Made by a program: the position numbers and the translations under genes. A DNA stretch of 64,000 nucleotides from Moniliella sp. 'wahieum' (lineage: Eukaryota): NCBI GenBank assembly GCA_003971905.1, contig RSEE01000018.1:558001-622000 (forward strand), written 5' to 3'. Below, piece after piece: positions 7,071 through 53,677 of the stretch. The notes beneath the pieces are model-generated. The model was given only the letters and a program-made list of their open reading frames with translations, made no database searches and was not told the origin of the DNA. Each line of letters starts with the position of its first letter. Position 1 is the first letter of the stretch.

Positions 7071-8357
7071 GGCGAGGAGGCGGAGGAGGTGGTGGTGGTG
7101 GGCAGGCGGTGCGTCCGTGCCGCCGCTCCTTGGGGGTAATCAGCAACCAGCGAAGGACAGGAGGGAGCTGCGGAGCGTGCTGACGTCAGCGAGGCAGTGC
7201 AAGGGGCAGCGAGCATCCGTGCATCCGCTCCGCAGCAGCGACGCCCATCGAAATCCAGCGCAGCACGGCGCCAGCCGGCCGCCCGGGGGCGTCTGTCGGC
7301 TCTGCGTATCCACCGGAGCTCCGCCGACGTCATAACGGCAACGCGATGATCGTAATCGATAATCGATGATCGATGTCCGCCAACCAGCCACTGGCAGCGA
7401 TGGGTTGCACGACATGGGTCACACACCGCCCAGGATGCAACCGTGTCTAGTGACTAGTGACTTGCGTGTCCCACACCGCGTGTCCCATGGACGTCGCTCT
7501 TCAGGCTTCCCACAATCAGAGGAGAGCATCAGATCCCGAGGAGACCGAGAGCGGGGCTGCGAAAAAACAAAAACAAAAACACCCGCTCATGCCAGTGATG
7601 AATATTGAATTGCGATGCATGACGGATCTGAATACAATGCATCACACGTCAGAGTCCCTGTGACGCGGTGATGGCCACTAGGTCACTCGAGGCGTTGGAC
7701 GTAGGACATGGGTCATCGATGATCAAGGCATGCTGGCATGTGGCACACTGGGCAGTACTGGGCAGTGATTTTGATGTGATGCGGCCCAGAGGCTTACCTA
7801 AGGTCTTCTGAAATGCGTGATGCATGATGCATGATGCATGATGACTCTATCCCGCCCCACCTGCCGGACGAGTGGGCTGGTGCCGGCGGGGGCACTGCTG
7901 AAGCCTGCCGGGGGAGCGCTGACTGATCGGAGCAGGGCCAGGCACGTCGCGGCACAGATCGGCGCCCCGCTGGCTACAGTGCGCTGGTGGGAGGGGGTGG
8001 CCCGCAGGGCGCCAGTGGAGTGTGGGCGTGGGCGGCGGCGGCTGCGTGGCACAGACGCCGTGCCGGCGCGCGGCATGCAGCTCCCGTGGGACCAGTACCT
8101 GACATGCGCTGGGCGAGCGTTTGGCTGGGCAGCACTGCGCCACGGGGGCAGTGTGGAGCGGCCGCGGCGGACGCAAAGCTTCTGGTGCCCACCGCCTCTG
8201 CAGGCTGCTGTGCGCCGCCGGCGCACCACCCGACGGGCAGCTGTACTCAGTACTCAGTACTCGTCCTCCCTCGCCTTGACTCAGTCCAGCTCCTCCACGC
8301 GCCCCCCGCCCCCACCGCCGCTGCCTGCCCCCGACACGCCCTCGCGCCTCCGCCGCC

Positions 8358-10339
8358 ATGCCCCCGCCCCCCGCGCCCGCGCCCGCCCTCGCCCCCTCCC
8401 CCTCGCCCTCGCCCACCCCCAGGCGCCGCAGCCTCCTCGCCAACATCGTCCCCTCCACCCACCGCCCCCACCCAGCCCCCTCGCCCGCGCCCGACGCCAC
8501 CTCCTCCACGCCCCGGCCCACCCGCCCTCGGCCCCCCACAGCCCCCACTCCCTCAACCCCTTCAGGTCCGCCTCCAAGCTGCCCCTCGACCCCGCTCCCC
8601 TCGCCCCGCTGCCCCCTGCCTCCACCGCCTCTGCCTCCACCGACGCGCTCCCCCCATCAGTACCCCGCCGAGGCCCACACCCCCACCGTCGGCGCTACAC
8701 CGACACGCGCCAGATCGACCAGCTGGCCAGCGAGTTGGCCGCCGAGCAGTCCTGGGAGGCCCAGAACCTCCAGCGCCGCATGCTTTCCCCCGGCGCCTAC
8801 GCCTCGCCCCCGGGTGCCTCGCCCGCCGCAAGCCAGAGTAGCCTGCTCGCGCCATCCCTTCGCCCCTCCTCCTCCCTCGCCCGGGCTCCTCCCGTCTGTC
8901 CCCGCTAGCACCCTACCACGCGTCTCCCCAGGCCGTCTTTACGCGCCCCCTCGGCTCTCCCGAAACACGCAGCTTGGACGCCCTCTCCTACCGAAGTGGC
9001 AGCTCTATCCCCCGCACCACCCGCTCTTCCCCTGCCCGCACGGGGTACGGGATGAGCCCCGACTTGATGGCCGGCCTCAGTGATGGGCCCTATCCCTCCC
9101 TTGGGCGGCGCTTGCCCCCGACCCCATCTTCCCGGACGGCCTCGAGTTTGGTCTGCCAGTGGTACAGGAGAACGAGCCACAGGGCAAGGGCAAGGGCAAG
9201 GGCAAAGCCCGCACCAGCTCTGTCGGCCAATCCTCCCCGCTCCGTCCGAACGAATCGCGTCGCTCCTCGACCGACACGCGACATATTCGGCGGGCAGTGA
9301 TGAGCATGTCGCTCCATGACCCCGTTCAAGAAGCGGCAGTGGCTGTGCCGCCCAAAAAATCCGGCTGGTCTTCCCCGTTTGGTGGGTCTCGCTCCGCCTC
9401 CCGCGCCGGCTCGCGGGCTGGATCGCGTGCAGGAACGCCTTCGGCGAGCCAGGCCAATTTGCGCGACACACTGTCCATGTCGCCTGCTGCGTCGTCAGCC
9501 TCCGTTGCCGGGACCTGGTCTACCACGCTGCCCAATCGGTCCACCACCTCGGTTGCGACGTCTGGCCGACGGCGTGGGTCGTTATTTGGTCTGCGGAGGC
9601 ATAAGGATCAACTCTCGCCACTTCCCTCGCCCGTCCCCTCCAAGCCACCCTCACCTCAAGAGACGACCAAGGCGCCTTCCACAGCAGGTCCGGCCTCGGC
9701 ACCCCCCAGTGCCACTTTGTCCGGCTCAGCAGCCAATCGGCCGTCCCGCAAATCTTCTACGCCAACGCAGCCGCCTACGCAAGCTGCATCCCATGGTGGA
9801 GACTCGGCCACCTCTCGTCCTGATGATCCCTCCAGCCCGCCATCAACGGAGACCAAAAGGGCCTCCGTGTGCCCAAGCTCGCCGCTGTGCTCTCTCCGCC
9901 CAGCAAGTCGCCCAGCAAGCCGCCCGCTCCGGAAGCCCAGGGCACCCCTCTGCCCCCGTTGCGCCCCGCTTGCCCCCGACAGCCGCGCAAGGCTCCAAAG
10001 TGCCCATGCCAGCGACATCGCCGGCCTTACCAAGTCCCACGCCTACTCCTAACCGTGCTCCTCAGCATGCTCAGTTATCCCCGCCGCGCAGCCAGCCCGC
10101 TGCTACTGCTTCGGGCCGCGATGCTCCACGAGGCCGGACCCACTCAACACCCAACCCAGTTTCGGGCACCAAGACGCCCGAACCCCCCGCAGCCCCAAGG
10201 GTCCACCAAACCGCCCCCTGCCCCGGCTTCCCAAGGGGGGTTGAGTAAGTTGTTCAAGCGTTTTGGCCGCTCGTCGTCCCATTCCCATTCTCAACCCAAA
10301 ACCAAACCGGCCGGCGGGGTGCAAGTAGGAGGCATTTAA
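8358..10339 (+). CDS. Hypothetical Ser/Pro-rich, probably disordered protein; frameshifted
   Basis: Overlapping long GC-rich ORFs can be joined into one protein-like sequence (RRYTDTRQIDQLASELAAEQSWEAQNLQRR, GKGKGKGK, RRRGSLFGLRR, GGLSKLFKRFG). No family recognised. Confidence 0.55.
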
Positions 10340-11120
10340 ACCACGTGTACACCTGCTCTGGTGATAACCCCTACCCACACACTGCTCCCCCTACCCTGGT
10401 CTCCCTATCCGCTCATTCCGACTGCCCCATGCGAAAGCTCACTTGGCTTTGCTTGATATACTTCGCCTTCGTTTCCCCGCTGCTGCGTTCCCGCTCGCTT
10501 CAATGGACAAACTGGTCTTGTGTTCCCTCCCCTATTCACGTCAGAGTCTGAGTCTGATTTGCGCCCCCTGGTCCCCCCAGGACACGCCCCGGACCGCTGA
10601 CTGTAGGATGGTCGATCGACAAGGTGCCGGCGGTTGGGGCGGAGGAGAGGTTAGTATGCTAGGCGAGCGCTTGTAATTGGGTAGCCTTCTCTCCACCGTT
10701 CCAACAGTGGCTACGACGTTCATGTAGGGGAGAATTGAAGGCACAACAAAGTATGTGCAAAAAGACGTATACAAGGGTGCTAGGGCCGGGGGGGTGGGCA
10801 AGCCAACGATTCTATCGCAACATCGGGACGATCTGACTGCTACGTCGCTATCTCGTCCTCCCGCTGTACTCGTTCTAATCCGCCGGTTGGGAGAAACGTG
10901 GAATCAAAAGAGAGAACAGAGGGGAAGAAGAGAAGCGGAGACCAACCAATTGGCACCATGTACTGCATCTGACCGATAGGTTTCGCATCAACATCGCTCC
11001 ACTGGGAGGCCGTCTAACGAATGAAAAGAGCGTATTGGGACGGTACACAAAGGGGGAATTGAAGGGGTCATAGCCCTAATGAGCGTGGGGACGAAACAAC
11101 AGAAGTTAAACCAGCATGTC

Positions 11121-14100
11121 TCATTGGACCGATTGGAACCAGCGACTGATCCGACGGGCCATGTGGGCTGCTGAATCTAAGGAAAGCACGGAGAGTGAGG
11201 GGAAGGAGGGAGGCCTGTGCGACTCGTGAAGATAGGGAGAGCGAGACCGAGTGCGTCGGTGCGCTGACCCCACCGTCACTCGATCCTCCCAGTCAGGCAC
11301 GGCGAGCAGGCACGCCGGGTCCCTGGGCAAGGAAAGAAGATCAGACGTCCGTGCTGACCCGTCGTTGGCGAGGACGCCTACGGTGGAAGAGGAGCGGATG
11401 GGAAGGTCGGGTGGGGTTACATTTTCGGCACCTTCAACGGCGGCAACTACCAAGCGCGAAATCTGCGTCTCGGTCGGATCGTTACTTACATCCTCCTTGC
11501 CAATGGTTGGCAGAGCCGTGCGTTCAACAACCGTACTAGTTGCATAGGGAAGGGTATGGTCCGCCCCCCCTATTTCAACTGCGCCCCGTATCGAGCCTTG
11601 CCTGGAATTCGGATCCAGGGCAGATGGCACGAGAAGCGTGCTTCTAACCCGAGGACCGCATGTGGCCAAAACGTCGGTCAACGACGTTGAAAATGAAGAG
11701 GAACGTTGGGGCGCAAGAGTGAGGGCAGATCCCGTACATGACGGACCCGGTGGGCTCCAACCATTGATATCCGACGGCTCCATCACCCTTTCGGGCAGCC
11801 TCATGACTCCCGTTGCGCGTCTGGGTCTCAACGAGGACCGCCGAGCTGGCTTGTTTGCCACGAGTGCAGGGTCCAAACCATCACGAGACTCGTCGTCTCT
11901 TCTTTTGGCGCGCTGAAATGATAGTGAAGTCCCCTCACATTCCTGCGCACCCAAAAACGATGACGCAACAGGAAATGGCACCTCTGTTCGATGCTGAGAG
12001 CGAGGGGGTGAGATGGCTGCGATGGAAGCCCATCGTACCGTGTGAGGAAGGCCAGAGAGTACGATGGCTGGGGATGGAATAGGTACCACAGGTTCGGCGT
12101 TCAGGTCCTTCGTGGCTTTCTGTATATTGGGTTCTTGCTTGGTCCTCACAGCCCCTGTTGGGTCATGGTCGCCGTCGCGAAGGCCCTGATGGCCAGCACT
12201 GCTTCCTTTGGGGGAGGGAGCAACAATGTCAGAATTGGATCGAAGCATACTGGGTTTTGCTACGTCTTGAATAGGGACGGTAGTGTTTGCAGGAGCAAAC
12301 GGAAGAAGGGAAGGCATCGACGCAGCTGTGGTGAGGGGCACAGTTACTGCCTTTGCCTTGGTGAACAATCGTGAGAAGGGTCTGTTGAAGGACTGCGAGA
12401 CGAGAGGTGTAAGCGAGGTTTCCTTCTTACTACTACTCACCTGGTCGTCGGGGAACCGCGTTGTCATCGTGACCGAGCCAGCATGCATGTCTGCGCGTGC
12501 GGCAGTCGCGTCAGTGATGATCTTAGCCTGACGCAGCGCTTCGACAGTACGCTTCCCGTTGGGAAATGTGGTGCCGTGTGCACGCTCGATCATGTTGGCC
12601 AGCATGAGTGAGTACTGCACCACGCGCTGATGCGGTCGTGCCAAGTAATCGTCCAACCGCAACTTTTTGCGTCGGCTTAGCGCCATCATGTTGTCTGCCT
12701 GTGATGGAGACATGGCCAAAGTTGGAGAGCAGGCTGGAGCAAAGGAGTCCCTTATTGTCGACGATGTCGGGCAAGGCGAGGGATCTTGGCTGGTAAAGGT
12801 TATGAGGACACGGGGAAGAAAGGGGGGGCACCAGGGCATCTTTCTTCAGTTGTGGATTCACAGCTAAACTCCAACGATGAGAGCGATCGGTTGGCGAGGG
12901 GCAATCGGCGTCCTTGATTATCAATTGCGGCAAGCGCAGGAAGGAGCGCGGCCGTCCCACTGTCCGCTGCTTTCGGTTAGGCAAGAAGGCCAGAATGTCA
13001 GAAGTGACCGAACCGCGCTTAGAACTGCCAAATATGGGTTCCTCGGAGGCGACGGCGTTGAATGGAGCGCCCACAGGATTGGGGGGGGATTGGACCATCG
13101 CAAAGGCATCGTGCTCTTTCGGTGTTTGGCCCGGCCGAGACAAGCAGCAAAATCGTGCTGGTTTCCCTGACGACCGGACCCATCATCTTCTTCTGTATCC
13201 CCCTCCACCCCCGAAGAAGATGAAGCAGACGAAGATAAGTTGATACCAGTGAAAGTTGATGCAGTAACCACTGCTCGAGCGCACTGCCGCTCGTACCCCC
13301 ACCACAAGTTTGGATCCCGTTCCCTTTCCACCTTGATAATGGACACAAGTGCCGGTTTGTACTGGCAAAATACGTCGTACACCGTCAAGTGGGGGCACTG
13401 AAGAAAGTGGCAATAACGTCAGTATTTCTTGCGAGTGCTGTTTTGTTGGTGTAATGCAGGTAGTAGAGGTAGAAAGAAACATACCAAAATGTCCGCAAAA
13501 AGAGAGGCAATGTCCACAGCAGCGGCTTCCAACTGAGCCATTACGGATGAACCGTGGGCGATTGAACCCCTTTTTTGTGTCGTAGCAATGTCTTCTCGTT
13601 GGAAAGAAGATGAAAATACTGGCGTAGAGGACATTGAGGATGACCGGGACGATAAGGGGCCGTCATGTTCTTCACATTGTACACCAAACGAACATGAGGG
13701 TGAGCTCGGGGGGCATGTGAACGGGGGATGAAGCCGATCAGTGGACGACGGGACGTCCAACCGCTCAAGAACTGTATCCAGTCGATGAAAATGCCACAGG
13801 TCATTCAGGTGCCTCGCAGCCGTCTTGTGGGTAATGAGCAGGTCTTCCAGTGCCCATTGAACCATATCCAACACGCGATGGTTCTCATTGGTTAGCCTGG
13901 AATCGATTCTTTCGGTCATAGTTTCAGCGTTACTGGCAAGACTGCTGTCGACAGGCCAATTGGCATGCATCTTGTGCTGTGATGGAGGTAGAGGGAAGGA
14001 ACTCGCCCGGGTTGCAGTTCTTGTCCACCGACTCGCCCTTCGAAGAGTCCAACACCTTGTCCATCTCATTTGTTGGAGCTCCAAGGCCCCCCTCGCTCCA

Positions 14101-21463: not shown

Positions 21464-21685
21464 ACGAGGAGACCACCGGGCCTACGGCCCGGTCTGCTGT
21501 GTCGCCACCTTAGCCACCGTTCCCCAGTCCACCATCGCCACCGTAGCCACCGTTCCTCCTTCGCCACCTTAGCCACCGTTCCCCCGGTCCACCGTTCCAC
21601 GCTGGGAGGGCAAATAATATCACCGATATACTCTGGCTGCGGGTGGCTGGGAACGTGTCACGGGGCAGCTGAGGTAAAAAGTGCA
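21464..21685 (-). mobile_element. Short non-autonomous Helitron-like repeat, copy 2, inverted relative to copy 1
   Basis: 21464-21521 is the exact reverse complement of 21267-21324 (58 bp). Further shared blocks are AAATAATATCACCGAT and GTAAAAAGTGCA. Confidence 0.6.
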
Positions 21686-25760: not shown

Positions 25761-28700
25761 GGTGGTGTTGGCTGGAGAAGGGGCCAGGCGAGGCCCAGGA
25801 ATAGGGGGCGATGGGCAAGGGGTAAGAAGGGTGTAGGCCGTTGGTGGATGTTCGGTCGTTGGCTGCGCTGATTGTGTGGTCACGTCCGAGAAGTGTGTGT
25901 CGGGGTGAGAGAGAGAAGGGGGGCTGGATATATATTTGAGGTGGCAGCCCCCCACCACCAGCGCAGCCCGGCAGTAGCAATAGCTGGGCTGGCAAGCGGC
26001 CCTGGCTGGATGACTAGCTGGAAGCTGAGGAGCGTATTGCGGGGGCACACCAGCTCTCGTATCAGCCACATCTTCTGATCCCTGCGATCCATCGCATCCA
26101 TGTGCTGTCTACCCAGTCCTGATGCCGGACACCTTCGGCCTCATCGCACACAGCCCTACGCAGTGTCTGCCCTCTGGCGCCCCGGTACCCGGAACGGGAA
26201 CGGGGGCGCAATGTGGAAAGCCCAGATGCAGTATGGGAGAACAGAGGGAGCGCATACGTACAGACATGTTCTTGGGCACTTGGATCTTAGAGCTTTCTGG
26301 GAGGGTCCCTTGGGGTGTTTTGCAGTGGTCAGACAGAGCTGCTCAGGGCCCACTGTCGGAAGTGCTTGTCCTCTGGTGCCGCGGGGCGCCAGTGTCGCCA
26401 GTCCGTAGCATGCTGCGTGCGTCACCGTCCAACTGGCTCCACCTGATGCCTGAAGCCTAGTGCCTATTCTGCGTTGTATTCTGTGCTGTGCCTGGCTGTC
26501 TACGACAAGTGACTCGATGCCCACGAATCACTGGTTCACCGTTTCACCGGCCACCAGGGTAATAGGCATTACATACTCGGCGTACAGGAGGCGCCGGCGC
26601 CGTCACATGATGTCACACACCGTGTCACCGGACATCCGGCACAAGATCTGACATGTGAGACAACACCCCAGAGACTGTGGGGCCTACCCCAGCCACCACC
26701 TGGTCGCGCTCAGCCGGGTTCAGCGCTCAGGCTCTCTCTGAACATCCGAGGCGGCAGAGAGGCTGACCATTGCCCACACTGGCGCGTTGAGAATACAATC
26801 GCAGTACATACTTTGTGCACGCCTGGATTTCGCAAGAAAGACCCGCGTGTCCAGCGCGAGCGTAACTAGAAGACCCCTTTCCAGGTCCCTTGAAGCTTCA
26901 AAGCGTTAAGATTCAAGCTTCAAGCTTCATCGTTGGATGCGTGGAACGTGAAGCTTGAAGCTTGAGTACTGAAAAACTGAGTGCGAATCCCAGCGCGATC
27001 TCAGACCTCTGATGTGGGATTGAGCTTGGGCTCGGGGGTTATCGAGTTCTATAGTTATCGATTATCGATTATCGACCGGTTAGCCGAGCACCTGTGATCG
27101 ATGATCAGCATCTCGGAGTGTGAATATGCATGCACAGGAGCCGAGCGGCTGCCCCTACTCATAGGCCTGCTGTCATGATCATCATGTCCATATGCGATAG
27201 TCCTCCGGAGGGTGAGAGGAAGGCGCCTGAATGGGTTGACGCGTGACGGTAACATCTGTGACATTCATATGTGGGTTGTTGTTTTGGGAGTGCCAGCCAG
27301 CGTTGTTTGTGTACCGAACAAACCGCATCTCTGGATACAAAGACATCGTACATACTCCCCTGTACTTTGTTACGCAATGCGCAATACCAGAGATGCGTTA
27401 TCATATTCTGCACAATCAAACGCCTCCATTCCCTCTATGCAAAGCAGCTCTTTTTGGTCCACACACAGCCTCTCTCTAGCAGCGGCCCTATCCCCTATGG
27501 CGTGGACGTTGAGCCGAAGCTGTGAACGGCAAACAAGTAGCCTTTACTATGCCAAGCGTATTGGAAACGAGATGTCTCAAGCGGGCAGAAGCAATATTCG
27601 AGTCTCTACGTCATAACAAAAAAAGACGTCACCTATTAGCTTTGGCCGCCAAAAGGCTCTCCAAATGCGATTCACCATGGGAGTCATAAGGGCTGTGTTT
27701 TTGAAATGTAGAACATCTTGGCTGGCTGCATAGCCTTTTGCCATTGGACAATTACCACGACGCCAATCTCCGGCTTACTCCGGCTCCCCCACACACTCGA
27801 CGTCATGACGTCGTTAGTACTCCGCATCCCCCGAACGATTCGCGGTGTTTTGGTGTCGTTGCTGCGGGTCTCGGCGAATGACTCGATGACGCAGATTGCG
27901 CTTGGCGAGCCCGCCCCGCCCCGCCACACGCACACACCCATAACACACACCCACACACCTTTTCTTTTTTTTTCGCCCCCCCGTATTCAGCGCAAAAGAG
28001 TATAGGCAGCAACCCTGTTTTGCTGCACAATAACTCGTTACAGTTGATGCTGCAGCAGCCCTGGCCAAGAACAGTCGATCGCCATGTGTTTTAGGTATCG
28101 AGTCATTGCAACCCATACGTTCAGAGGCATGCTGCTATGATTGAGAAACACAGGGGAAACGTGCCCCGGCCTCGCTAGTTTGTGGAGATTTGAAGCAAAT
28201 CGACTTGAGCAAGTACATTACAACCTACCCTCGCAGGCCCCTGGGAAGAAGAGAGGTCTGAAATGTCGGAATACTGATAACATAACCAATTTGCGCACGA
28301 GGCCCAAACCTCGATCGATAGGTCCTCGTGGAGACTCAAAAAGCTGACGATATATATAGCCTTCCAAACCCACCCCGCGGATACTAGAATTGTAATAGGT
28401 ACTCGTCTCCTCTCACACTTTTTGCAACTTCTACTTCTCTTTTTCCCGCCACCAACTGTCTTTCCGTTCCACACTCTCACTTTTATATGGCTTCCCCACA
28501 TTGGCCCTGAAGGGACGCTTACGTCTGTACTCTAGCCCTTTTTCGGTCTTTTTCTCTTCGAACCCCATCAGCCATTGTTTGGGACGAGTGCGAGAGAGGC
28601 ATGGGCACTGCACTAAGGAGAGTTATTTTCATGTCAGAGGATTGTTGCTCGCGCGTTTGGACAGGGTCTCTTCAGTCCCTCATCAGGACTGGGAGAGCTC

Positions 28701-29401
28701 CTGTTTTCTCGCTTATATGTCTTCACTGTTCGATAGTGGCAATGCCCCGATGTAGCGAATGGCACAGAGGGGGGGGGGGGCACACACGTTAATATAGTTA
28801 TGGCCTCAGCCCTAGCCTCGCGTGGTTTTGTTTTGTTGATGACGACGATATGGCCAATACATTTCCCCTTTCAACATATGCTTTTACTCTTCAAGCTTAT
28901 CCCCGTTAACCATTACAGGATCTCGCTGCATCATAGTTTTGGACTTTTTGGTAGAAGAAACCAGCCGGATTAGATATCTGTGTGTGCTGGTGACGCTATA
29001 TATTGACCTCTATCTGCTCTCTTCAGTGGGGGTGAGAGGCCGGCCGCGATGAGGATTCTTGTTCGCTATTTACAATAGTAAACGACGTTGAACGTTCAGT
29101 TGAACACTGTACTCTGCCCGTTTCTACACTCCCGGCGGCGTATCCGGCGCGCCCCCCTGAGTCTATGCAGGTCCAAGTTTTGAAAAGCTTCAACTCGCAG
29201 GCTCGGCGAAACACAACGCTTTTGTCGACATGTGACGCGTGACGTAGCCACTATAGTAGTGACCTGCAGCGAGTGGCACTGAGTATACAGCCAATGGTTG
29301 TGCTGTGCACTCACACTGCTGCTGCGAAGTACCAAGTACTTCCTGAGTGCTGTGGCCAAGAGTGCTCCGCAGGCTCAGCCTGAGCCGCTGACTTGGACAG
29401 C

Positions 29402-29715
29402 TGACATGTGACAAGTGACATGTGACATGTGACATGTGACATGTGACATGCAGCTTGATGCATGTGCATGAATTGACAAGGTGTCAGGTAATCGATGATG
29501 TCTGAGATCTGATGCATCTGATGCATGATGCGTGATGATCGATGACATCGATGACATGTGACATGCATGACATGTGACATGTGACATCAATATCATCAAT
29601 GACGTGATGACATGTGCCATGCGACATGCGATATCTGCAAGCTGTCAGCGCTCAGGCGCTCAGCGGCGCTCAGGGCGCTCAGTTTCGGCGCCGCGCTCAG
29701 CACGCTCAGCCTGAG
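29402..29715. repeat. Densest block of 7-bp TNA-palindrome arrays
   Basis: (TGACATG)x7 at 29402-29450, one unit being TGACAAG. It is followed by TGATGCA, TGATCGA, TGAGATC and TGACATG units, then TCAGCGC/GCGCTCAG-type units. Confidence 0.9.
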
Positions 29716-32700
29716 CACCTCGTTGCCCCTCCAACCGGAGACAGCACGTCGGAATCGAGAAAAAGCAGCAAGTATGTATATGACAGGTGTCGAATGTCGT
29801 CTACGTCATGCATCTACATCATGCATATCCATCGTGCCATGTATGTACACAAAGTGGGTGTTCAAACGTTCCACTACGTTCACGTACGTTACACGTAACT
29901 GCAGCCCAGAATTGATGCAGCAGGATGCTGGATGTGGAGCATGGTGTTTCTTCTCTCACACCAACAAATAATAAGATGCAGTCCCAAACTATTGCGCAAC
30001 AAAAAAGCCATCGCACCTCGCTAATGCTGATGCACTGATGGTCTTCAAAACCACATCCGGCGGCGGAGAGACGTACACACACAGGGCTTAACAATACTTG
30101 GTACGTAGTGCGCTTGTTACTCTCCGCGTGGGCTTGCGCGACCCCCATCCGAGCCCCTCCACCTTAGATCGCTCAGTCACTCAGGGGCCTCTTTCTTCTA
30201 AGGCCTCTTTGGTTTCATATGGCCTGTGGCCTCCATCCTGAGGTCAGGCCTGAGGGCCTGAGGGCCTGACGCGTTTTATGCGTTACGCGTTACGCACCAT
30301 GCACGCCTAATGTATCACGTATCACGCGCCACATATCACGGCCCTTCCTTGCGGCGTGTGTGGTAGCGTCAGCACAAAAAGCTATTCAAAAGCTTCATTG
30401 ATCATCATTCTTTTTTCCTTCATTAATGTTGATTCGCTCTGAATCTGACTGATATATTTTGATGACAGATATAGGCGAACCCTTAGCTGTTATACAGCAT
30501 CATGTGATTATGGGAAACCAGTAGGATAATCCGACCACTGTCTGATATAGTTATTGGCTCTAGAATTAGGCGTATACTGTATGGATCTTGTACGCATAGG
30601 CCCTCATTTTAACTTTGGAGACCTGCTGCATTCTCTTCTGCTCTGCGTCCAGATCAATCGTTTGTTGCATAATGTATACTTGGCTGTGGTGCACTTTATT
30701 AACAATACACAACAAAAGCAGTCGGAAAAGGTCCCACATACTGCTGCATACACCCCGCGGGGGCTATACCGAAAACTCCAGGGCATTATATCCTGAGGGC
30801 TTGGGCTCCGGATCATCGATCCCGATCAAGTCTGAGATTCTCAGCCGCGTCCGGTCTGCCGGGCCACAGGCCCTTAGTAATTAGTACTGAGACTCAGTAC
30901 ATACTCAGTACTCAGTACCGAGTCTGAATACCCTCAGTCTGAGATCTGAGCCTTTAAAGCTTAAGGGCTTAGGCCTTATAGAATCTCTCAGCCCCTCAGG
31001 CTGGGTGTCAGGCTGAGGACTCCGCCTCCATGCGCCACAGCTGAGATATGAAATGAGTTTCAGAATAGATCTATTCCATAAATGAGTCGATACCGAGGTG
31101 GCTTTCTTGGCTTTTGAGATTTGAGAATACTACAGGTACGTACTTGAAGCTTGAAGCGTAATAAAGCTCGGATGTACGCTCCTAATAATAAGCGGTGACT
31201 AGTGACTAGTGACTAGTGAAGCTAGTGACTTCGTATTTTGTTGACATGGATGTTGAACGTTGACTAGCGCGGATAGTGGCTAGTGTGTACTGACTAGGAC
31301 ATGACGCATGAACGTCACGAACGTTGAACTCAACCGCTGATCGTACAAAAACAGGCCATACTGAAAAATACACATGCCGAATATACTTAACGGGGGGGGG
31401 GGCGTGGTACACACGTCTTCATTCCTCACACCTTCATCCCACAATGAGTTTTTGCCATATGTTTTCCTTGTTTGAACGTTATTTTGCTTGGGAAGATCCT
31501 TCTCTCTCCGTTTCCTCAATTCAACATCAACCCAATATTCCATGGGAACTAACGGAGGCATCGCCAGCACCGCAGGTATCTCCTGACTCTCTCATATGAA
31601 ATCGAAAAGCTTCCAAAAAAGCTGCCGATCACCGGAGAGGAGCGCGAAGCTACAGCCTGTGACATGTGAAGCTTGAAGCATAGGGTGTGGTACCGGGTAC
31701 TCACATGTACCCTACAACCGTGAACTTTTTCTGCGAGACATCTTGTTCTTGCTCAATCTGAAAAAAAAAACTAGGTACACATATCTTGAGAGGGGGAGCA
31801 CTAACATGCTTCAGAACCACGCACCATGCACCGTGCCTACTCGTGCTGTCCTGATGGGTTGTGGGCGCGGAGGGAACGAAAGTTTTCACAGGTGAACGAA
31901 CGCCCAGCGCTCACGCGCTCACGACAGATGTTCAAAGAAGTACGTTCAGATCTCAGAGAAGCGCCGAGAAAAGGAATGGTTTCCTACTGACGCGTGACGC
32001 GCCTCTCTATCTGAGACGTCAAAGAGAAAAGGAGTATATGTTATTAACAGGGGAGTAAACGTTAAACACTCCAGCTAAAGACTAAGCGCAGGCACTCCGT
32101 TACAATGCAAGAGCACAGTTGTTCAATGTGGCGCAACCTTTGCCGCTTTGGCAGTTTCAATATTAAGCAGTTCTTGGCGTGTGAGACAAACGTGAGACAA
32201 CCGAGACCCTGTGGATCCCTTCCATCCGTGTCCAAGGAACCCGATTGGAATAGGATCGGTTGCACCCCACTCCACCCCTCCCTTCCATTTTTCTCGGCCG
32301 TGTGGAGGACACGACACGATGCATTATCCCGTGCATGTTTTACCGAGACGCGTGACGCGTGAAATTTGGTGGCGGGGAAGGGAAAAGAAGAAAGCCCAAA
32401 TTCACAGTCGGGGCTAAGGCGAGGGTGACCAGGGTGGATACTATGGGCCAAGGGGTGCAGCAATCGTTCGTGGGGAAGAAGCAAGTGCAAAGCGGAAGAA
32501 ATAGAGGGAAAGAACGAGACGCTCGCCGAACGAAGAGACTGGAAATGGGAGCGAGATCAGCGCTCAGCCAAACTATGACACTGCGGGTCTGTTGCCTACA
32601 ATCGAGATGTGAATCTCACGCGTCGCGTCTCAACGACCTATCACCCTCCTCCTCAACGGATGTGAGGCTAACCTTTTAAAATACTTCTTGCCCTTGACAA

Positions 32701-33772
32701 CACCGAACGGAGGAGATCCATCTTCTGTTCCCATCAGTACTCAGTGTGGTGAACGAGTCACATACGTAGAGTCAACAAATGTAGGAACGAGAGAGGATAG
32801 CTTTTTTGGGAGAGGAGAGGGTGTCTCCTCTCGCATCCCCTTTCGTTTGGTCTTGCCTCGAGCTTGCCTCGAGCTCGCCTCGAGATGCGGATGTTCGTTC
32901 TCTCACGTGTTTCGATCTCGGGCGTAATGCTCTTCTGAGATCTGAATCCTATGACATGTGACCCTACTGTGACAAGGCGTGGGACCCTGAGGCCCTGAGA
33001 CCTGGTCGATGATCAGAGGGCCTTAGCAGCCTTATTTAGAGCATGCTTCACTGAACCTATAGCTAGAGTGTACCGTCTAGAATTGAGTGCGCGCGGGCTG
33101 CGGTATACCCGATACAGCCGGTACTATATATCGTCCATCCCAATACTTGTATCATGATCGATGACTTCGATGACAGGAACAAACGATCCGTGACCGGCGT
33201 GACCGCGTATTCAGACCCCCGAGACCGATTGAGCCGGGACCAGCGCAATGTATGTACCAACACTCGTATAGGTATCCCCTTCTGTATGCATCTCCGGCGA
33301 AAGTATCGCATCCGCCACAATACATTTGTTGTTACATGTTATCCATGTTATCCACCGTGCACCGCTGGCCACTTTGTATACACATGGTACAGCCATGCTT
33401 GATACATGATGCAAGACACGGCGCGAGGTCGGTGTGAGCCGCAGGCTGTCTATCGATTCTTGAAGGAGATCCACATCATGCTCATGCATCATGCAACTCT
33501 CGTAGGCGTCTGCCAACGACTCTCCTCCCGCGTAGCTTGGCAAAGGTTGGCTGAGTGCCACAAGGTCATCCATCCATCTCTTTGCAATCGGAATTACGGT
33601 TGAGGGTTAGTGCCCAATTCGCACCATACCATACGAGGGGCGTCTGATACCTGATCCGCGCCGACATAGTGGGGCATATAGTGCACGGTGCATTACAAAC
33701 TGCGTAGTGACAGAGGTTCCAGAAGCATCTCCTACCGGTATTGTGAGGATTGTGAGGAATTGGTAGCCATAC

Positions 33773-38758: not shown

Positions 38759-39198
38759 GCCGGCACGGGAAGCAGAAGAAGGTGGTGGTGGGGGGGGGGG
38801 GCGGCCGACGCTGGCAAAAAAAAAATCACCCCATTGCGGCGCTGGCTGGGCGCGAGACAGGCAGAGCGCAGAGCGCAAACGACGATGAAGTTGAATGTTC
38901 AACCTGCGAGAAGAAACGAGGACAGCCGATGAGACTGCTGTGTGATGTGCGACGTGTGATATGCAATGCGTGGTGATGCAGGTGATGGGTATATTGATGG
39001 ATGAAATTGAAATCAACTGGCTGTGCGGCTGTGCTACGGCATGCGACAGCCTGCGACGAATCACGGCTGGCGGCTGACGTGGCGCCCCGCCCACAAACCA
39101 GATGGACATCGCCGGCCGCCGCTTTTTCCTCACCACCTCCAGGCACTTCCTGGCCCCGCTCCCCCTGCTCCCCGCCGCGCCCTGAGGTCTGCTTCGAG

Positions 39199-43771: not shown

Positions 43772-45131
<1,360 letters not shown>

Positions 45132-45653: not shown

Positions 45654-47211
45654 CTACAACTCAAAACGGGACTTGGCCGTCCCATACAGCTCTTGGTATA
45701 GCGCCCGCAAGTCATCCGACGCCTGCTTAGCCTTGGGTCCTTGCCCCATCTCATCGTTTATGGCAAGGAACTTGATCCCGTGAGCGATACGATAGCGGAT
45801 GTTGAGGCGAACCGACGCATTCTCCTCGGCAGAAGATGTCCACCGATGCAGCAATATGGTCTGTGTCGTCATTGACTGAGGCGCCACGGCAAAGGTCAAG
45901 GGCGACTTTTGATGGCCCAGAGGGCGAGTTCCATGCATCAAGCTCCCCTCGAGCGCCGTGTAGGCATGCACCAGTAGCGGTGTGATCACGTCCTCGTAAT
46001 GTCGAAAGCGGTGCGAGAGGGGTGGTGTTGATCTCGGTTACAAAACGGCGTGTTGTGCCGAGCAAGGCGGTACGGGAATACACAAAGGGCGCGTGGCGTA
46101 CAAAGCGAGGTGGAAAGGCAAGTTGCTCAGCAGGACCATAGGCACGTTGAATCGCATCCAGCGTGTTGTAGGTACTAAACCGCCAAACGTGTTGGGCAGG
46201 AACAATTTCATGGTAGTTGGGTGGCTTGCGAATCTCTTTCGATTCCAGGTATTGCAACACGCCCCGCCCCGAACCACGTCCACGGTAGCCGTCCTGGATC
46301 CAGACTTCGTCTGGAGAAACATCGTCGCCCCCCCCAAGGTGAAAAAGTCACTGGGGTGCAAGGGTGAAGGGAAGGTGTAGTCATCATTGCAGTGGATAAT
46401 CCACTCACTGTCCGGCAAATGGCTGCCGCGAGGGGGAGGGGGAAGCCGATGCAGGAAGGCTTCAATGACGTTGGAGCTAAAGGTAGGCTGAGCCGCCGGG
46501 GGGAGCAAAACGTCTTGGTCCACCCACTCGATCCGTCCGAAGATCGGGGTGGCCGGTTTGCGCGGCAGGCGACGCATGGGGTACTGCTTGTCCCTTGGCG
46601 TTGAAAGGGGGGTGGGCGAGGCGGACAAAAGAAGGTGGCGAGGGGGACACGATCACAATTCGTCCCGTGTGCCAAGGCAAATGCATGGCTAACGTGCGCA
46701 AACTGAACAGCAGATCATCATTGTCCCGATCCCGGTCGCCGCCAACGGCGACACGCCCGCCATACCGTTCCCGCAGTTGACGGTTGTCAGGGTCGCTGCC
46801 GTTGATCCATGTATAGACAATGGTCGCGTTGCGCGCCCACTCCCATTCGGGCTCGAGCTGTGCGGATGGCGCGACTGACGCCAGCCCCCCCTGGGGGTCC
46901 GGCCCCCCATCTGCTGGTGATGAGGCGAACGAAGGGAGGGAAGCCTTTGGGGTGGACACGGAAGGGAAAAGGTAAGAGGAAATGGAAGTGCGAGAGCGGA
47001 GAGGATCAGATTGGAGGTGGAGTGCCGACCGGATCGGTGCGGTGGTTGCAGCCATTACAAGGACCATCAGCACGGCGGCGACAATCAAGACAGTACAAGC
47101 GCGCGAGGGGCGGCGGGACGGATACGCAGCGCCAGGTGCATTGGATCGTCTGTGGCGAGAGGGGAAGGGGCGGATACCAAAAGGGGAGCGTGGCCGAGCA
47201 CCCATTCCCAT
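45654..47211 (-). CDS. Stealth-family sugar-1-phosphate phosphotransferase, type II membrane topology; frameshifted
   Basis: An N-terminal TM segment, CR1 IVYTWINGSDP, CR2 RDNDDLLFSLRTLAMHLPW...PTFSSNVIE...NDDY, HAPFVY, and CR4 FLAINDE. Confidence 0.88.
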
Positions 47212-49175
47212 AGTCGGTGAGGCGCTGAGCAGTCCTGGTTTCACGCGTCTTCCGGAAGCGGTGGCCGTGGTGGTGAGCAAGAAGATGTGCATTTGTTCTG
47301 AATCCCCCTGGGCTGTGTGTGGTAGGCTTGACCACTGCAGGTGGGTTGAATGTTCCTTGCCTGAGACCCGGCGCGACTGCCACCGTGAAGCCGGTGAAGC
47401 TTGAAGACGAGAAGGCCCGAAAGCTGATGCACTGAGGGTGCGCCAGCCGGCACACATCGTTTCATCACCCCCATCCCACCCGCTGTCTCGCCTGGGTCCG
47501 CTCGGGTCTGACGCCGTCTTGCTCCGCTGCTTACGCGGACCACAGGCACCTCTGCGAAATCATATCACACAGCCGGCAGCCTGCCGAACAAGGCCGGTGT
47601 TGGCAATGGTATCAACGTCAACACAGCGTCAAGGTTCAAAGCGTTTAGCGTGAACACATCGAACATGATTCTAAGCAGGGCGTAATGGGAGGTGGAAGAG
47701 CCTGGTGGAGCACACAGTGAGAAGCTGCATCCCACCACTGCCACCGCCATATGTGCCAATCTCATTTTCTTTTACTTCGGGTTCAACGTGTTCAAAACGT
47801 TCAGATGTCGTCAGACGAGTATATAGCCACAGAGTGTGGAAACTAGAAGCCGATTGCTGGCCTCGATGGTCACCGTGTTCGTTGGGCCTGACTGTCACTA
47901 TGTCATGGAAGTTGATCACAGACTTAATCACAACTTGCTCGAGGTTGTCCACATGTATATGTAAGCTAGTTAAACGTTAAACGTTAACAAGGCGCTCTAA
48001 GATAACCCTAAGCGCTATAATTATGGTGCGAAACAGGAAGAGAGTCGGCGTATTAGCGCAGAGCGTAGCGGTACTACCACACAATATCTGGCTAACTGAC
48101 GGCAACACGTGATGCACGAGATGGCCCCAACGGAGTGGGAACGAGCGAGAGGCTTCTGACCACGAACGCAAAGGTGAACGAAATCTCCAGACGAAGAGTA
48201 TGTCGCCTGGTGTCGCTCGTGACGCGTGACGTTGAAACGCGTGAAGAGAAGAAAACCAGAAGGAGAGGGAGAAAAGCGACAACAGAGAAGAGCACACAAA
48301 TTGTGACCGTGTGATGGATCGAAACGGCGCACGATCGCGAGGACAACGCAATACTAGCGTAGTGCCGACGCATCATGGATGATCTAGATGATCGATGATC
48401 GATGAGGCGACCTGAGTAAGAGTCTGAGTATACTATAGTGCACAATCATTAATCATCGATATTGTAGCGACGCGTGAAAAGGCTCTGACCTGGAGACACC
48501 TAGTCTCTAAACCACAGACGATCAGCGAGTAGAAATCAAGTAACGAGGTGAGCGAGAAGAAGGGGAAGGGGGAAGGAGAGGTGTTGGCGAAGAGGACAGA
48601 GCAAGCAGTGGGACAGGAATGTACACGTGTGGCCTGCTGGCCTGCTCGCGGCAACTCGAGGGTCTAGCTTTCACATCTACAAATCACAGGCAAGGCACCG
48701 GTGGGTGACATGGCAACAATATCGATCATCTCCAAGTTAATTAAGTCACAGCAGTACGAGCTCTACAGCATCAGAGCGAACCGCGGTTCACTTGTGCGGA
48801 TGCAGACGCAGATATCAGAAGGTGAAAACAGACGGATGATCGATGAAGAGAAGAACAGTGGAACCCATTGGACAGGGAACGGATTCCGGGCGGAAGCCCG
48901 GAGCCGTACCCGTCCACAAAAGCCCGGTACGAGTGTGAGAGATAGTGACACTTCGAAATACTACACAGCGTTACCTGAGGCCTGATGTTACAGTATACAC
49001 AGCCTTTTACTGACGGTACTGACCGGTGACCGGTGACCTCTCTCTCTCGTATCAAAAAACCATGTCAGTCCCATTAATAGACTAATGGGGAAAGGTTTCA
49101 CTTCTAATAGTACTAGAGACTAATAGCACAGTAGGACTGTCAAACCTCAGGACCTCAGGAGGCAACTTCTCCTCC

Positions 49176-49393
49176 ACAAGGAGGACTACCACCGGGCCTA
49201 CGGCCCGGTCAGCTGGGGCTTCGCCCCAGCTGTGCTGCGTCGCCACCTTAGCTACCGTTCCCCCTTCGCCACCGTAGCCACCGTTCCACCGTCGCCAACA
49301 CCGACATAGAGAAATAATATCACCGATGCTTGCTGCTGGCTGCGGGTGGGGGTGGCGTGGAACGTGGCACGGGGCAGCTGATGTAAAAAGTGC
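49176..49393 (-). mobile_element. Short non-autonomous Helitron-like repeat, copy 3 (diverged)
   Basis: Same ACCGGGCCTACGGCCCGGT hairpin, TCGCCACC(T/G)TAGC(C/T)ACCGTT units, AAATAATATCACCGAT and GTAAAAAGTGC. On the minus strand it ends in CTTGT. It has an extra hairpin CAGCTGGGGC-TTC-GCCCCAGCTG. Confidence 0.6.
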
Positions 49394-51294
49394 CAGGACG
49401 ATAGTAACCACTAATCGATCTTCCACAGTGCGTGCGTCGGTGGGCCCCGAACGGGACGTCGTAATCCGTGCCAGAAAAGTGGAGCATGCGTCTGGAAGAG
49501 CGACATCCGTGCGCTCTGAGATCTGACTGCTGATCTCTCTCAGCGTTATGAGACCTGAAGTCCTCATGGTCCTCGACGGTGCTGCAACTGCACTGGCGGT
49601 GGTATAGTGGTCTAAGCAGCAATGCCTACAGAGAAACAACAAGCAGCTAGTCACCACCAGGGTGGCTACTAGGCTGCGGAACAGGAAAACAGAAGAGAGA
49701 AAACAATGGAATTCTTATATTACGCCTGAGGAGGGACAGAAGGGACGTTGGCCAAAACACGCGAGCTACCCGCGGTGGCTAAACACATCAGTGCCCTCGT
49801 TGTAGCCTAGCAGACTCCCTATATGATAGAGCAGTATACGCTCGGCACTCGCCCCCTCGCGGGGCCTCCCCGCGAGTGACACACGCCTGCCTTGTTCTTT
49901 TGCGCTTAGGACGCCTGAGAGAGGGGGAAGCTCTGATGATCGATGACTGATGATGACCACGGTATAGATAGGCAAGTAGCTAGTAGCGGGGGGGAGAGTG
50001 TGAAATACCACATGGATCGCGAGTGTCTCGGCACTAAACTTTGTGGTTTTATCTGAGATCATCTGTTGAGAGGTATATAGGGGTCTTCCGTGGATACTGT
50101 CGTAGTATTAGTTGATGGAACCGAACTGGATTCGCGCGCATGATAATTTAATTCGCCCCATAGCAAGACGTTATCGCGGCATCGATGGAGAGAGTAACTG
50201 AGTTCACTGAGTACTCCATCTGAGTAGTGCTAGTGAGCTGAAGTAGTGACACTAGCGACTAGTGACTAGTGATTAGTGAGGCATGATGCCGAAGAGACTT
50301 GAAGCTTGAAGCTTTGGAGCTTGAAGCTTGAAGCTTATTGAAGAAGACTGAAACAGTTTTGTGAGAGGCTCAACGTTTGACGTGGTTGACATGTTGACAC
50401 CTACGCCACCAACCTCCGACGGACATTCATTTGCATTCTACGATGCGAGGCCGAAGAAGAGATTTTCGACAGGCCGTATTTCCATCTCCTAAAAACATAG
50501 GTGAGCGTGAAAAGCATATGGCCAGGTGGTTGGAGTGTATTGTAAAGATTCAACGTATACATTTTGAGCACGTTCGTTGGTCTCACAGTCTCAACAGTAA
50601 CTCAATACAGGATTCATATTCACATGTGACAGTATGCTCTCTGTTCTCTCTTTGGTCCAGCGTTCAACATGACGTGCTCGCACCTTGCTGCAATGACTAG
50701 TATCTAACTCTATTCAAAACAAAACACAAACGTCCGCAGAAACTCACTCAGTACTCAGTACTCATCTCAATAGATCTCAACGATCATCGATCCTCGTTAT
50801 CTGCATCATGCATCACTATAGTCACTAGTCACTTTCGGTCTAAAGCATGTTCTGCATTTTTGATGCATGTCAGTTGGACGTTGGCGGCGGAACCACATGG
50901 ACCCGATGCAGTCGTCTGGTGGGAGACGGGCGGGAGGTGGGGAACATGAGATCTGAGACCTGAGACCTGGGATATGAGAACCGGACTAGCCGGTAACAGG
51001 GTACCACCACAGGTTTGCTTTATCGATACGCGTCCTCTCCCTCAGAGATACAGATGGCTTTTTGTTGAAACGTCTCGCCCTTCACGATACGGAAGACATC
51101 CCGTTTGTTCAACGTTGTTCAGGCCCGCCTTAGGCCTCAGGGCCTCAGCAGAAATAAAGCAGCGGAGTCGTTGGATCATTGATAGAAGTGGTTTCTGGAC
51201 TGGTGGTTCGGTACCGAGAGATTATCGAGTATCTAACAGATTCCAAGAACCGTGTCAACAATTAAATTAGGCGTGAGATCGATGTGAGAGATAG

Positions 51295-51425
51295 CATGGG
51301 GACATGAGGACATGGGGCATGGGGACATGGGGCATGGAGGCATGGCGACATGGACATATGGAGACGTGGGGACATGGGGACAGGTGACATGGAGACATGG
51401 AGACATGGGGACAGGTGACATGGAC
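51295..51425. repeat. Degenerate minisatellite of roughly 8-bp GACATGGR/CATGGGG units
   Basis: catggggacatgaggacatggggcatggggacatgg...gacatggagacatggagacatggggacaggtgacatggac. Confidence 0.85.
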
Positions 51426-53677
51426 AGGGTGTGATGGTGTTTTCACGGTTACCGGTTAGCCACTGCCGTGACGCGTGACGCGTGAATATCAATCTTCGTC
51501 CGACAGGTCACGCGGTCACCCGGTCACGCGTCGGCGGCCCACATGTCACATCCGCCGATGCGCCCATGTCCCATGCTTCACATGTGATGCATGTGACTAG
51601 GAACTCATGCGGACACACGGCCTACAGGTCCCATGCATCACAGGGGTTAGCGCTAAGCTTAGCGGGCAAGCCACGTCTGTGAAGCAAGCATATGCTCTCC
51701 AGAAATCCACATACTCTCGGGGCTTTTTGTACCACGCGTCTGTCCCGGGCCTGAGCAGTGCCTGAGCGCTCCCAGGCCTGTGCCTTGGGCCTGAGGTAGC
51801 CGCGGTGCTGAGGCGCTGAGGCGCTGAGGGTCCTTGGGCCTGGCCATCGAATCAGGGTCAGCTTCAGGGGGGCTGCAAATGTACGTAACGCGTAAGCGCT
51901 AAGCGCTAAATACAGTAATCCGGCAAGCCGGCCTGCCCCGGAGTGCGGCTGTGTGCCTTCTTAGTGCCGTCCTGTGCCGCCTTGCCGCCTCAGGGCTGCC
52001 TCCGCGCCGCAACAGCCGCAACACCGGCGCCCGGCCGGCGCCGCAACCAGTCTTGGCATTTGCCTCACTTGATTTCGCCCTGTCTCGCCTCCGATCAGAG
52101 GGAGGCTTTAGTGCGCATCAGTCCGAGGCTCCAGCCCAGAGTCCAGTGGCGCTGTCCGCGTTTAGCGCTTCGCCTGCAGCATGAATCACGTGGCACATGC
52201 GCCTGCGCCACAATCTACCCTGCTTCAATGGAGCAACTGCCGAAAACTGACAGCGCCTATAGGAGCAGAGAGGTGCCAAGTTTGAGCGGCTGAGCCTCCA
52301 GATATCTTTAGAGCTTGAGAGCGTGAGCGTTCTGGCTGCACGGACTGCTTCCATGTGCTCTGCTAGTGCGTGCAAAGGTGGACGTTGAACGTTTGAGCTT
52401 GAATCGCCCTGCCGGGGCGGATGCCGATGATCGAGGACTGGGGCCGCATGAATAATCGAGGATGTCAAGATCTGAGACCTATTTGCGTCTCGGAAAGCCG
52501 GTGTGCTTGGCAAACCCGCAGTGGTGCGACCATCATGCATCGTACACACCAACCATCGATCATCTCGAACATCGGGCGGGCGCGGGGGCGTTGCCATCAT
52601 GTCATGCTTTTGTGTGTGATTGCATGATGTTCGAGGATTAATGCGCGCATTAATGAGGCGTCTTCCGCCGGTCAAATGTGCTATCGGGATGCCCAAGATG
52701 GACAATGGCGATTCCCCCGTCTTCATTATTACGACGGGGGGGGGACGGACGCACAACGAGAGCGGCAAGTGAGCGTCAGTTCACACTCAAGATGAACGAA
52801 CGGAGGGGTGCTGAGTAACTCAGTACTGAGTGAGTACGCAGTACAGAGTGTACTGATGTACTGTGTAGTCTCACGACCGAGCGGGCGCTGTGCCAGCCTA
52901 AGCTTTTCACCAACCAGCCAAGTGTGGCGTTTCGTGGAAAAAACGAGGGCTTCGTCCGTTTATCAAGCTTCAAGCTAAGCGTCACTAGCGTCACCACGAT
53001 GGAATGACGATTATCGATCATTAATCATTGGTCAACTACTGACTGGTAGTCACTAGTCACTGTCACTGCAGCACTGCTACCGCTGCTGTGCGAGGTGGAT
53101 TAGGCGTTGGCCTGCGTTCAATTGCCGGGGGAGGGAGATTCAGAATACGAGGTGCTGCGGATAGATGCTCTGCCCCTTGCGAGACACTCGTATGGCTGTT
53201 CGCAGCGCGCAAGCACTTAGTACCCTCAGTAATCAATGCGAGAGTACTCAGCTAAGTGCCCTGTGGCTCCGCTCCGTGGCTCAGCCCCAGTCTTGGGCCT
53301 TTCCAACACTGTGTGTAGGATACGACGCCCCCTGATCGTGTACGTACACCTCACCTCGCCAAACACCTTATCCCACCCACTATGCACTGTGCCACTCCAA
53401 AGGAGAACAAGGACGCAGTGCGGCGTTCGAGTCTTGTGCTGTACACACAGCGCGCCCAGTATCAGAGACATCCAGTTTCTATAGTGCTAGTTCAGCGTAG
53501 GCATCGCCTTAAAGGTGCCGCCACTCCTCGTCCGCCACGGAGGTTCGTCTTTCGTCCCCGCCTCGCTCAACGCACACTCCCTTCTTTGTCCTTTCAACCC
53601 CTGGGCCTTGCTCATCCACATCGCCGCGCGCTCCCAATCCCACAGTGCGCACAATCCAACCAGTGTTGTTGGTCTAG

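Follow-up and report, generated by a model that had tools for sequence, protein, structure and literature searches.

Insertions of seven bases, all made under one strict rule, pepper the DNA between genes in a 64-kb window of contig RSEE01000018.1 from Moniliella sp. 'wahieum' (positions 558,001 to 622,000), the stretch of DNA analyzed here. Each leaves two T-N-A trinucleotides on either side of a 4-base palindrome, a configuration that we call a link, and in most links the palindrome consists of a neighboring dinucleotide joined to its own inverted copy. As an observation this is very strong. The best reading of it, which in our judgment has about an even chance of being right, is that the links are excision scars of a cut-and-paste transposon, which would have made a 7-bp target duplication centered on TNA and left flank hairpins that were opened two bases off the tip. 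Results on elements, genes, and motifs are confined to the window unless metagenome contigs are named.

Exact tandem repeats in the window are most frequent at period 7, with 20 arrays, compared with 11 at period 6, eight at period 4, and three each at periods 3, 5, and 8. When the exact period-7 arrays of at least 14 nt were collected, the unit was a rotation of xy-TNA-y'x' (primes denote complementary bases) in 35 of 46; the remaining 11 include two C-rich low-complexity runs. Counted site by site, 115 of the 243 TNA-N4-TNA sites have a palindromic core, compared with 8.1 +/- 2.7 (maximum 16) in 200 dinucleotide-preserving shuffles, whereas the 128 non-palindromic cores are at the expectation from the same shuffles (ca. 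136). This comparison, of a kind that an initial annotation of the window had proposed as a genome-wide check, bears the pattern out, and all 12 arrays cited there as examples are present where the annotation had placed them. Under a 5th-order Markov model, which preserves 6-mer content, 28.6 +/- 5.3 palindromic links are expected in the array-bearing non-coding DNA (19,186 nt), where 101 were observed.

The rule is specific for both the frame and the length of the core. Cores are palindromic at 47% of sites in the TNA frame versus 2-7% in 15 other XNY frames. Four-base cores are strongly enriched (115 versus 15.2 expected) and 5-base cores weakly so (20 versus 9), with lengths 2, 3, and 6 close to expectation (41 versus 37.5 for length 3). 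The spacer is usually repeated directly, as had been annotated: the two TNAs of a link have the same N in 96 of 115 cases, complementary N in 12, and other combinations in 7. Fourteen of the 16 possible 4-base palindromes serve as cores, in 2 to 16 links each, and AATT and TATA are not used. The annotated use of all G/C-containing palindromes therefore stands, but the supposed absence of the all-A/T ones does not, because ATAT and TTAA each occur in two single links. With respect to location, 102 of the 115 links lie outside open reading frames (ORFs) of at least 150 aa, which make up 59% of the window, and this agrees with the confinement to intergenic DNA noted earlier. The links are grouped in two islands and in smaller ORF-free stretches; in all, 91 chains occupy ca. 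20 kb, with a link density of ca. 4-7 per kb.

The form of the unit event was read from the start and end positions of exact period-7 runs that obey the rule. Among 28 runs of 12 bases, 23 have the form TNAwx-x'w'-TNAwx (12) or its reverse complement (11), versus 0.16 expected, whereas bare 10-mers consisting of TNA-core-TNA are not enriched (3 versus 1.24 expected). Every 13-mer is a 12-mer with one additional base, the 19- and 26-mers retain the end phases of the 12-mers, and longer arrays are shorter ones plus whole units, the dominant array phases being 0 and 5 at the start and 2 and 4 at the end. We scored a link as anchored when the two bases that follow the motif are the same as the first two of the core, or the two that precede it are the same as the last two. 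By this measure half of the core matches the adjacent flanking dinucleotide in 99 of 115 links, compared with 27 of 128 control sites with non-palindromic cores. At least one end is anchored in 73 of the 91 chains, and the unanchored remainder (16-18) is near the number of chance links. Hetero-chains, which carry more than one core (at 31658, 53011, and 21392), agree with templating by the flank. Thus, the site before the event is l2 l1 T N A w x, and the event adds seven bases, namely a second TNAwx and an inverted wx. Because cores copy the flank so much more often than the control sites do, they are made of the flank and its inverted copy rather than of element ends; therefore, 12-14 element families with different termini need not be assumed.

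Rarer junctions extend the picture given by the main class, in which five of the seven target bases are repeated. At six non-array loci, versus 0.04 expected, the whole TNA-centered 7-mer is doubled around two palindromic bases (abTNAcd-d'c'-abTNAcd), and at four loci the 7-mer is duplicated in plain tandem (eight when both strands are counted, versus 0.37 expected). Counts on both strands gave 9 junctions with one palindromic base (1.0 expected), 113 with two, meaning a spacer equal to the reverse complement of the last two bases of the repeat (0.3 expected), 11 with two palindromic bases and one extra (0.2 expected), and 15 with two and two extra (0.15 expected). Twelve-mers with complementary N number 10 (versus 0.37 expected), and those with either of the other two bases as N number 5 together (versus 0.40). 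The one-base, two-plus-one, two-plus-two, and complementary-N classes are thus each at 9-100 times expectation, and a spread of this kind is expected from end joining. In 55 inferred empty sites, N is G in 24, C in 23, A in 4, and T in 4 (G or C in 47 of 55), and the composition of position -1 (G20 A15 C12 T8) mirrors that of position +1 (C18 T14 G13 A10). In this small sample, the composition of the target is compatible with two-fold symmetry centered on N.

The grammar is also found outside this genome, in metagenome contigs, and it is far denser here than there. At least 123 metagenome loci matched a 19-base (TGAAGCT)n pattern used for scanning, and the AGCT cores seeded by the pattern were left out of the counts. 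Among the matches listed, 101 of 1249 TNA-N4-TNA sites are palindromic (8.1%, versus 4.6-5.7% in five control frames), and 35 anchored 12-mers occur in 337,912 nt versus roughly 2 expected, a value scaled from the window shuffles (ca. 0.4 per 64 kb) that is rough because the composition differs. One metagenome series (27 loci, 112,147 nt) contains, again among the matches listed, 21 of these 12-mers, and within it 21 of 37 palindromic but 52 of 323 non-palindromic links are anchored; the corresponding values among the matches listed for the other 96 loci are 20 of 64 and 171 of 823. The hetero-chain CC-TCA-GGCC-TCA-GCGC-TCA-GC, in locus L002, has the same anchoring. Hetero-chains with flank-anchored grammar occur in L002 (2781-2800 and 3000-3030), L072, L075, and L039, and GGCC is the commonest metagenome core (13 of 35 non-AGCT 12-mer instances among the matches listed). 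Within the 27-locus series, L070 encodes a bleomycin hydrolase fragment that is nearest to those of Agaricomycetes (Thelephora terrestris, 64%, then Suillus and others). The taxonomic reach of the grammar thus rests on one identified contig, which by protein similarity appears to be Agaricomycete-like.

In the mechanism that we favor, an element would enter through a 7-bp staggered opening centered on T-N-A (l2 l1 T N A w x), duplicating 7 bp as cut-and-paste insertion does. On its departure, both flanks would be sealed into hairpins, and a nick two bases from each tip would turn the end of each flank into a 3' overhang with a 4-base palindrome, wxx'w' at one flank and l1'l2'l2l1 at the opposite one. 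Artemis-type nucleases open hairpins ca. 2 nt 3' of the tip. End joining that kept one overhang and clipped the other would leave TNA-wxx'w'-TNA-wx or its mirror, a net gain of 7 bp, with both mirror 12-mer forms in equal numbers. If one hairpin were opened at the tip, the 16-mer class with the doubled 7-mer would result; if both were, the plain duplication would; and deeper opening would give the complementary-N class. A scar formed in this way would hold two TNA sites with the same neighbors. Since both overhangs there would be the same palindrome and hence cohesive, another event would lengthen the scar by one identical unit, and an event at the edge of an array would build a new core from the new flank, as may have happened in the hetero-chains of the window. 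Replication slippage may lengthen arrays as well. A related motif, TNATNA with the same N, occurs 140 times in the whole window on both strands, versus 81.6 in shuffles; part of this excess could be scars with both overhangs clipped, and coding repeats such as GATGATGA also contribute.

Precedents for such a pathway are found in other systems. According to excerpts of the papers concerned, Ac/Ds scars in Candida, budding yeast, and plants show deletions as well as inserted palindromic P nucleotides that arise via hairpin resolution and end joining (PMC5873905), flank hairpins are formed by hAT, Transib, RAG1, and Muta1 (PMC5499845), and 7-bp target duplications accompany the basidiomycete transposons hAT7 (Pucciniales) and Kyakuja (Laccaria) (PMC12730594).

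Several results weigh against the scar reading. No mobile element matching the scars was found within the 64-kb window: a Pfam search of 227 ORF translations (15 + 109 + 103) returned no transposase, integrase, or reverse transcriptase family, and the ORF translations of island 1 (Table 1) matched no transposase or other mobile-element family. The search for terminal inverted repeats with a TNA duplication, which the initial annotation had recommended, produced in the window a single candidate with inverted ends of at least 10 nt (48456-48725), which is at chance level, since identical 3-nt flanks of any sequence accompany 7 of the 651 inverted 10-mer pairs. The one candidate in the window with a TNA-centered 7-bp duplication beside inverted ends is built of array motifs, and self-BLAST of the islands revealed no dispersed repeat family, only the arrays and small-gene paralogues. 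The density of chains is very high for fixed excision scars, and the event rate needed per site would, by a rough estimate, differ from the point-mutation rate by no more than about a factor of ten. A junction with both overhangs kept was seen nowhere in the window, and in the 55 inferred empty sites the target composition is only weakly symmetric. The odd palindromes specific to hAT were likewise not seen, three-base cores in the window being at 41 versus 37.5 expected. Finally, links are absent from six ORF-free stretches, including 57171-58987 and 44280-45753; the pattern is thus not window-wide in intergenic DNA as had been annotated, and these stretches require an extra assumption on insertion preference or selection.

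A host process without any transposon is the first rival reading. DNA would be opened at TNA by a nuclease (conceivably a domesticated transposase) or owing to a structure prone to breakage, and fold-back (snap-back) repair would follow, in which copying and realignment insert TNA, the flanking dinucleotide, and its inverted copy. The grammar demands only a TNA-centered lesion and templated repair, and the lack of an element in the window, the very high link density, and the recurrence of the grammar in other contigs all speak for such a process. We nevertheless consider it unlikely: the clean duplication of whole TNA-centered 7-mers is what integration classically leaves, the routes by fold-back that can be conceived call for several ad hoc steps, and no enzyme is known for the process. 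To our knowledge, no nuclease makes a 7-nt stagger and hairpins without transposition. Quite unlikely, in our estimate, is an origin as ordinary microsatellites, in which self-complementary heptamers would slip and expand more readily and quasi-palindrome correction would preserve their symmetry. Arrays of 19-49 nt are indeed foldable (-2.6 to -10.6 kcal/mol), and since array lengths differ by whole units, slippage may well contribute to growth. Hairpin-favored slippage cannot start the process, however, because the founding 12-mer folds at 0 kcal/mol, array ends are phase-locked rather than random, TNA is the only enriched center (ANT, GNC, and CNG are at background), and 13 to 53 of 200 shuffles fold at least as well as the single arrays do. 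Moreover, the pre-event site holds only 5 of the 12 bases, 35 of the 46 period-7 arrays obey one rule rather than having any chance unit, and periods 5 and 9, which allow the same symmetry, are not enriched.

That the links are selected, whether because a dimeric protein binds the arrays or because they are a chromatin or nucleosome signal in promoters, seems to us very unlikely. It would agree with their position in non-coding DNA, in several cases adjoining the 5' ends of genes, and with the lack of links in some convergent 3'-3' spacers (10337-11123, 44280-45753). However, 14 cores are used at similar rates, so that outside TNA there is no conserved base-specific contact; a core dictated by the neighboring dinucleotide is not expected under selection for binding; and ORF-free stretches of the last 10 kb have no links. 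The initial annotation had preferred a model of the Tc1 or PIF/Harbinger type, in which a 3-bp TNA duplication is accompanied by two bases left behind by each terminal inverted repeat. This reproduces the formal TNA-palindrome-TNA shape, but it predicts bare 10-mers in unrelated flanks, and those are at 3 versus 1.24 expected, compared with 23 versus 0.16 for anchored 12-mers. It would also require 12-14 element families and runs counter to both the copying of the flank by 99 of 115 cores and the preference for G or C at N (47 of 55), so that we regard it as highly improbable. What survives of the annotation is its broader idea of excision scars, which is still the best reading, and its alternative of hairpin opening with P nucleotides, which fits the data; an origin of the core in element ends does not. 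A base-calling or assembly artifact is scarcely credible, because long ORFs are avoided by the links, which follow the flank-templated rule and are found again in metagenome contigs that were assembled independently. Variant geometries were also considered and dropped: a 5-bp duplication plus two P bases is asymmetric about TNA and leaves the 7-mer duplications unexplained; hAT geometry with a one-base offset predicts odd-length cores; a cut at ^TNA with 3-nt overhangs and fill-in yields TNATNA rather than a core; and strand switching at a palindrome predicts complementary N, which was seen in 12 of 115 links only.

Excision scars with P nucleotides are textbook knowledge, and the closest known relatives of the links are the scars of hAT, Transib, and Mutator elements (Ac/Ds; the Coen hairpin model) and the P nucleotides of V(D)J coding joints. 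As in the window, the target duplication is kept in such scars. Short inverted copies of the last bases of the flank stand at the joint, and junction variants surround a dominant form, following end joining after hairpin opening, which would be the case here as well (excerpts of PMC5873905 and PMC5499845). The features that the window shares with hairpin-type scars are the retained duplication, the inverted flank copies at the joint, and the variants around a dominant form. It differs from them in that the duplication is of 7 bp and TNA-centered, that one outcome dominates (+2 on one side, -2 on the other), that the scars would be fixed at ca. 4-7 per kb and chained into tandem arrays, and that no element is seen in the window. 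The palindromes of Ac/Ds, as described in the available portion of PMC5873905, have the complement of the base adjoining the element as their center, a geometry that therefore gives odd-length cores, whereas the cores in the window are even, with four bases.

The hAT superfamily has an 8-bp target duplication, with variants of 5, 6, and 7 bp reported; the duplication inferred for the window is of 7 bp, as is that of hAT7. Both hAT7 (Pucciniales) and Kyakuja, a member of the KDZ group in Laccaria and other Agaricomycotina, share with the window a 7-bp duplication within Basidiomycota (PMC12730594, in part). The likeness is one of duplication length; in addition, flank hairpins are formed by the superfamily of which hAT7 is a member (excerpts of PMC12730594 and PMC5499845). 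Neither was detected within the window, and the excerpt of PMC12730594 contains no scar arrays and no report from Ustilaginomycotina. The scars of Tc1/mariner and PIF/Harbinger resemble the links in being short and bounded by the duplicated target. Their extra bases come from the ends of the element and their duplication is TA or TWA, whereas in the window the insertion is a copy of the flank, and 47 of 55 sites have G or C as the central base. MuTAnT elements in TA repeats of Medicago offer a parallel in the idea that a repeat can grow through target duplications within it; the element, target, and repeat are others, and the MuTAnT case, as far as the excerpt goes, is without palindromic cores (PMC4486113). 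Prokaryotic intergenic heptamer repeats, of Xanthomonas and Nostoc, are likewise of period 7 and intergenic (PMC4692102, in part).

The coordinates of the islands, representative arrays, and junction types are collected in Table 1.

Table 1. Islands, arrays, and junctions in the window
Feature	Position	Strand	Remarks
Island 1	26109..33609		7.5 kb without long ORFs; 51 of 115 links, ca. 7 per kb; link-free gap at ca. 27250-29085
Island 2	47560..53489		34 links around two small minus-strand ORFs (49085-49714 and 52121-52780)
Arrays including (TGATGCA) x3.7 at 7818-7843	7344..7843		ORF-free stretch just past SUR7-like ORFs (6214-7139, minus)
Opposed AGCT arrays, TCAAGCT and TGAAGCT	26913..26965		19 nt between; possible 17-bp perfect hairpin stem
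(TTATCGA) x3	27055..27075	+	Core TCGA, spacer TTA
(TGACATG) x7, longest array	29402..29450	+	One variant unit; exact run 29415-29450
(TGACTAG) array	31195..31219	+	Core CTAG
Period-8 variant (GGCCTGAG) x2.9	30247..30269	+	Usual unit plus one base; others at 51807-51829 and 51133-51148
TCAGT-ac-TCAGT	32734..32745	+	Typical founding 12-mer; flanks unrelated; own fold 0 kcal/mol
GATGA-tc-GATGA	48835..48846	+	Mirror-form 12-mer (yzTNA-wx-yzTNA)
TG-TGA-CATG-TGA-AGCT-TGA-AG	31658..31679	+	Hetero-chain; two cores, each anchored to its own flanking dinucleotide
TCTGATG-ca-TCTGATG	29508..29523	+	7-mer duplicated around 2 palindromic bases
TGTCATC-ga-TGTCATC	29541..29556	-	7-mer duplicated around 2 palindromic bases
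CATCAAT-at-CATCAAT	29585..29600	+	7-mer duplicated around 2 palindromic bases
CGTGACC-gg-CGTGACC	33189..33204	+	7-mer duplicated around 2 palindromic bases
GATAACA-tg-GATAACA	33337..33352	-	7-mer duplicated around 2 palindromic bases
GGTGATG-ca-GGTGATG	38972..38987	+	7-mer duplicated around 2 palindromic bases; upstream of conserved deoxyhypusine synthase domain
TATCACG in plain tandem	30312..30326	+	No palindromic core
Other plain TNA-centered 7-mer duplications	31113-31126, 35461-35475, 37518-37532		

The opposed AGCT arrays have 17-nt arms that are 100% complementary, with a folding energy of -21.6 kcal/mol (z -8.0). In island 2, arrays with the cores CTAG, AGCT, and GTAC stand in mirror order at 50254-50759 and 52818-53061, flanking a 2-kb segment that contains the ORF at 52121-52780. 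They were considered as long inverted ends and rejected, as homology stops at the arrays. Between heptamer arrays of the same island lies a degenerate period-8 array (CATGGGGA) x16.6 (51295-51424), which does not obey the TNA-palindrome rule. A small gene-like unit with degenerate 9-nt repeats of the GCCACCGT type, without a Pfam match, occurs in three copies (21108-21324, 21464-21684, and 49188-49393). The first two form an inverted pair with 92-nt arms that are 96% complementary, and heptamer arrays lie inside the 139-nt spacer between them; the third is 28 kb away, in island 2. The array-bearing flanks of the copies at 21.1-21.7 kb and at 49.2 kb could not be aligned, and no state before and after an event could be read from them.

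The window is eukaryotic and gene-dense, with few introns. Pfam matches include glutamate synthase, SUR7, S-adenosylmethionine synthetase, SCP2, myotubularin, deoxyhypusine synthase, glucosidase II beta, eIF3L (Paf67), Stealth, GH16, an acyltransferase, and a protein kinase; a RhoGEF match is weak (E 1.3e-4, under the Pfam cut-off), and no tRNA genes were found in the window. The top named relative of the glutamate synthase ORF is that of Tilletia indica (86% over the aligned part), followed by those of Violaceomyces, Ceraceosorus, Malassezia, Thecaphora, and Ustilago. Because these best named relatives are all Ustilaginomycotina, we treated the window as that of a smut-like basidiomycete. Coding GC is lower and GC skew is negative at 53500-64000, where the motif is represented by four chance-level 10-11-mers only, despite ca. 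2.9 kb of ORF-free DNA (57171-58987, 60591-60961, and 63307-64000). At 8300-8900, a C-rich, low-complexity stretch with a GC content of 0.71 and degenerate repeats of 20-32 nt period sits within long overlapping ORFs that have no Pfam match.

In the literature that we searched, neither palindrome-cored heptamer arrays nor genome-wide scar arrays in fungi are described, and a genome-wide pattern of this kind seems to be undescribed. Basidiomycetes might conceivably have an endogenous TNA-targeted +7-bp insertion process without a free-living transposon, for example a domesticated hairpin-forming nuclease, improbable though we think this is. If true, it would act at a rate roughly comparable to that of point mutation and would be a chief source both of intergenic DNA and of an entire class of palindrome-cored heptamer microsatellites, a categorically new mutational signature. 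If instead the links are excision scars, as we favor, short non-coding stretches would record thousands of past insertion-excision events, and the choice of target, the position of hairpin opening, and the outcome of end joining could be read from genome sequence alone. Because TNAwx-x'w'-TNAwx can be counted in any genome, a link to transposons with 7-bp duplications, such as hAT7 and Kyakuja, or to a host nuclease is directly testable. Under the scar reading, scars, besides the elements themselves, would form a visible share of intergenic DNA and would seed microsatellites with a fixed grammar.

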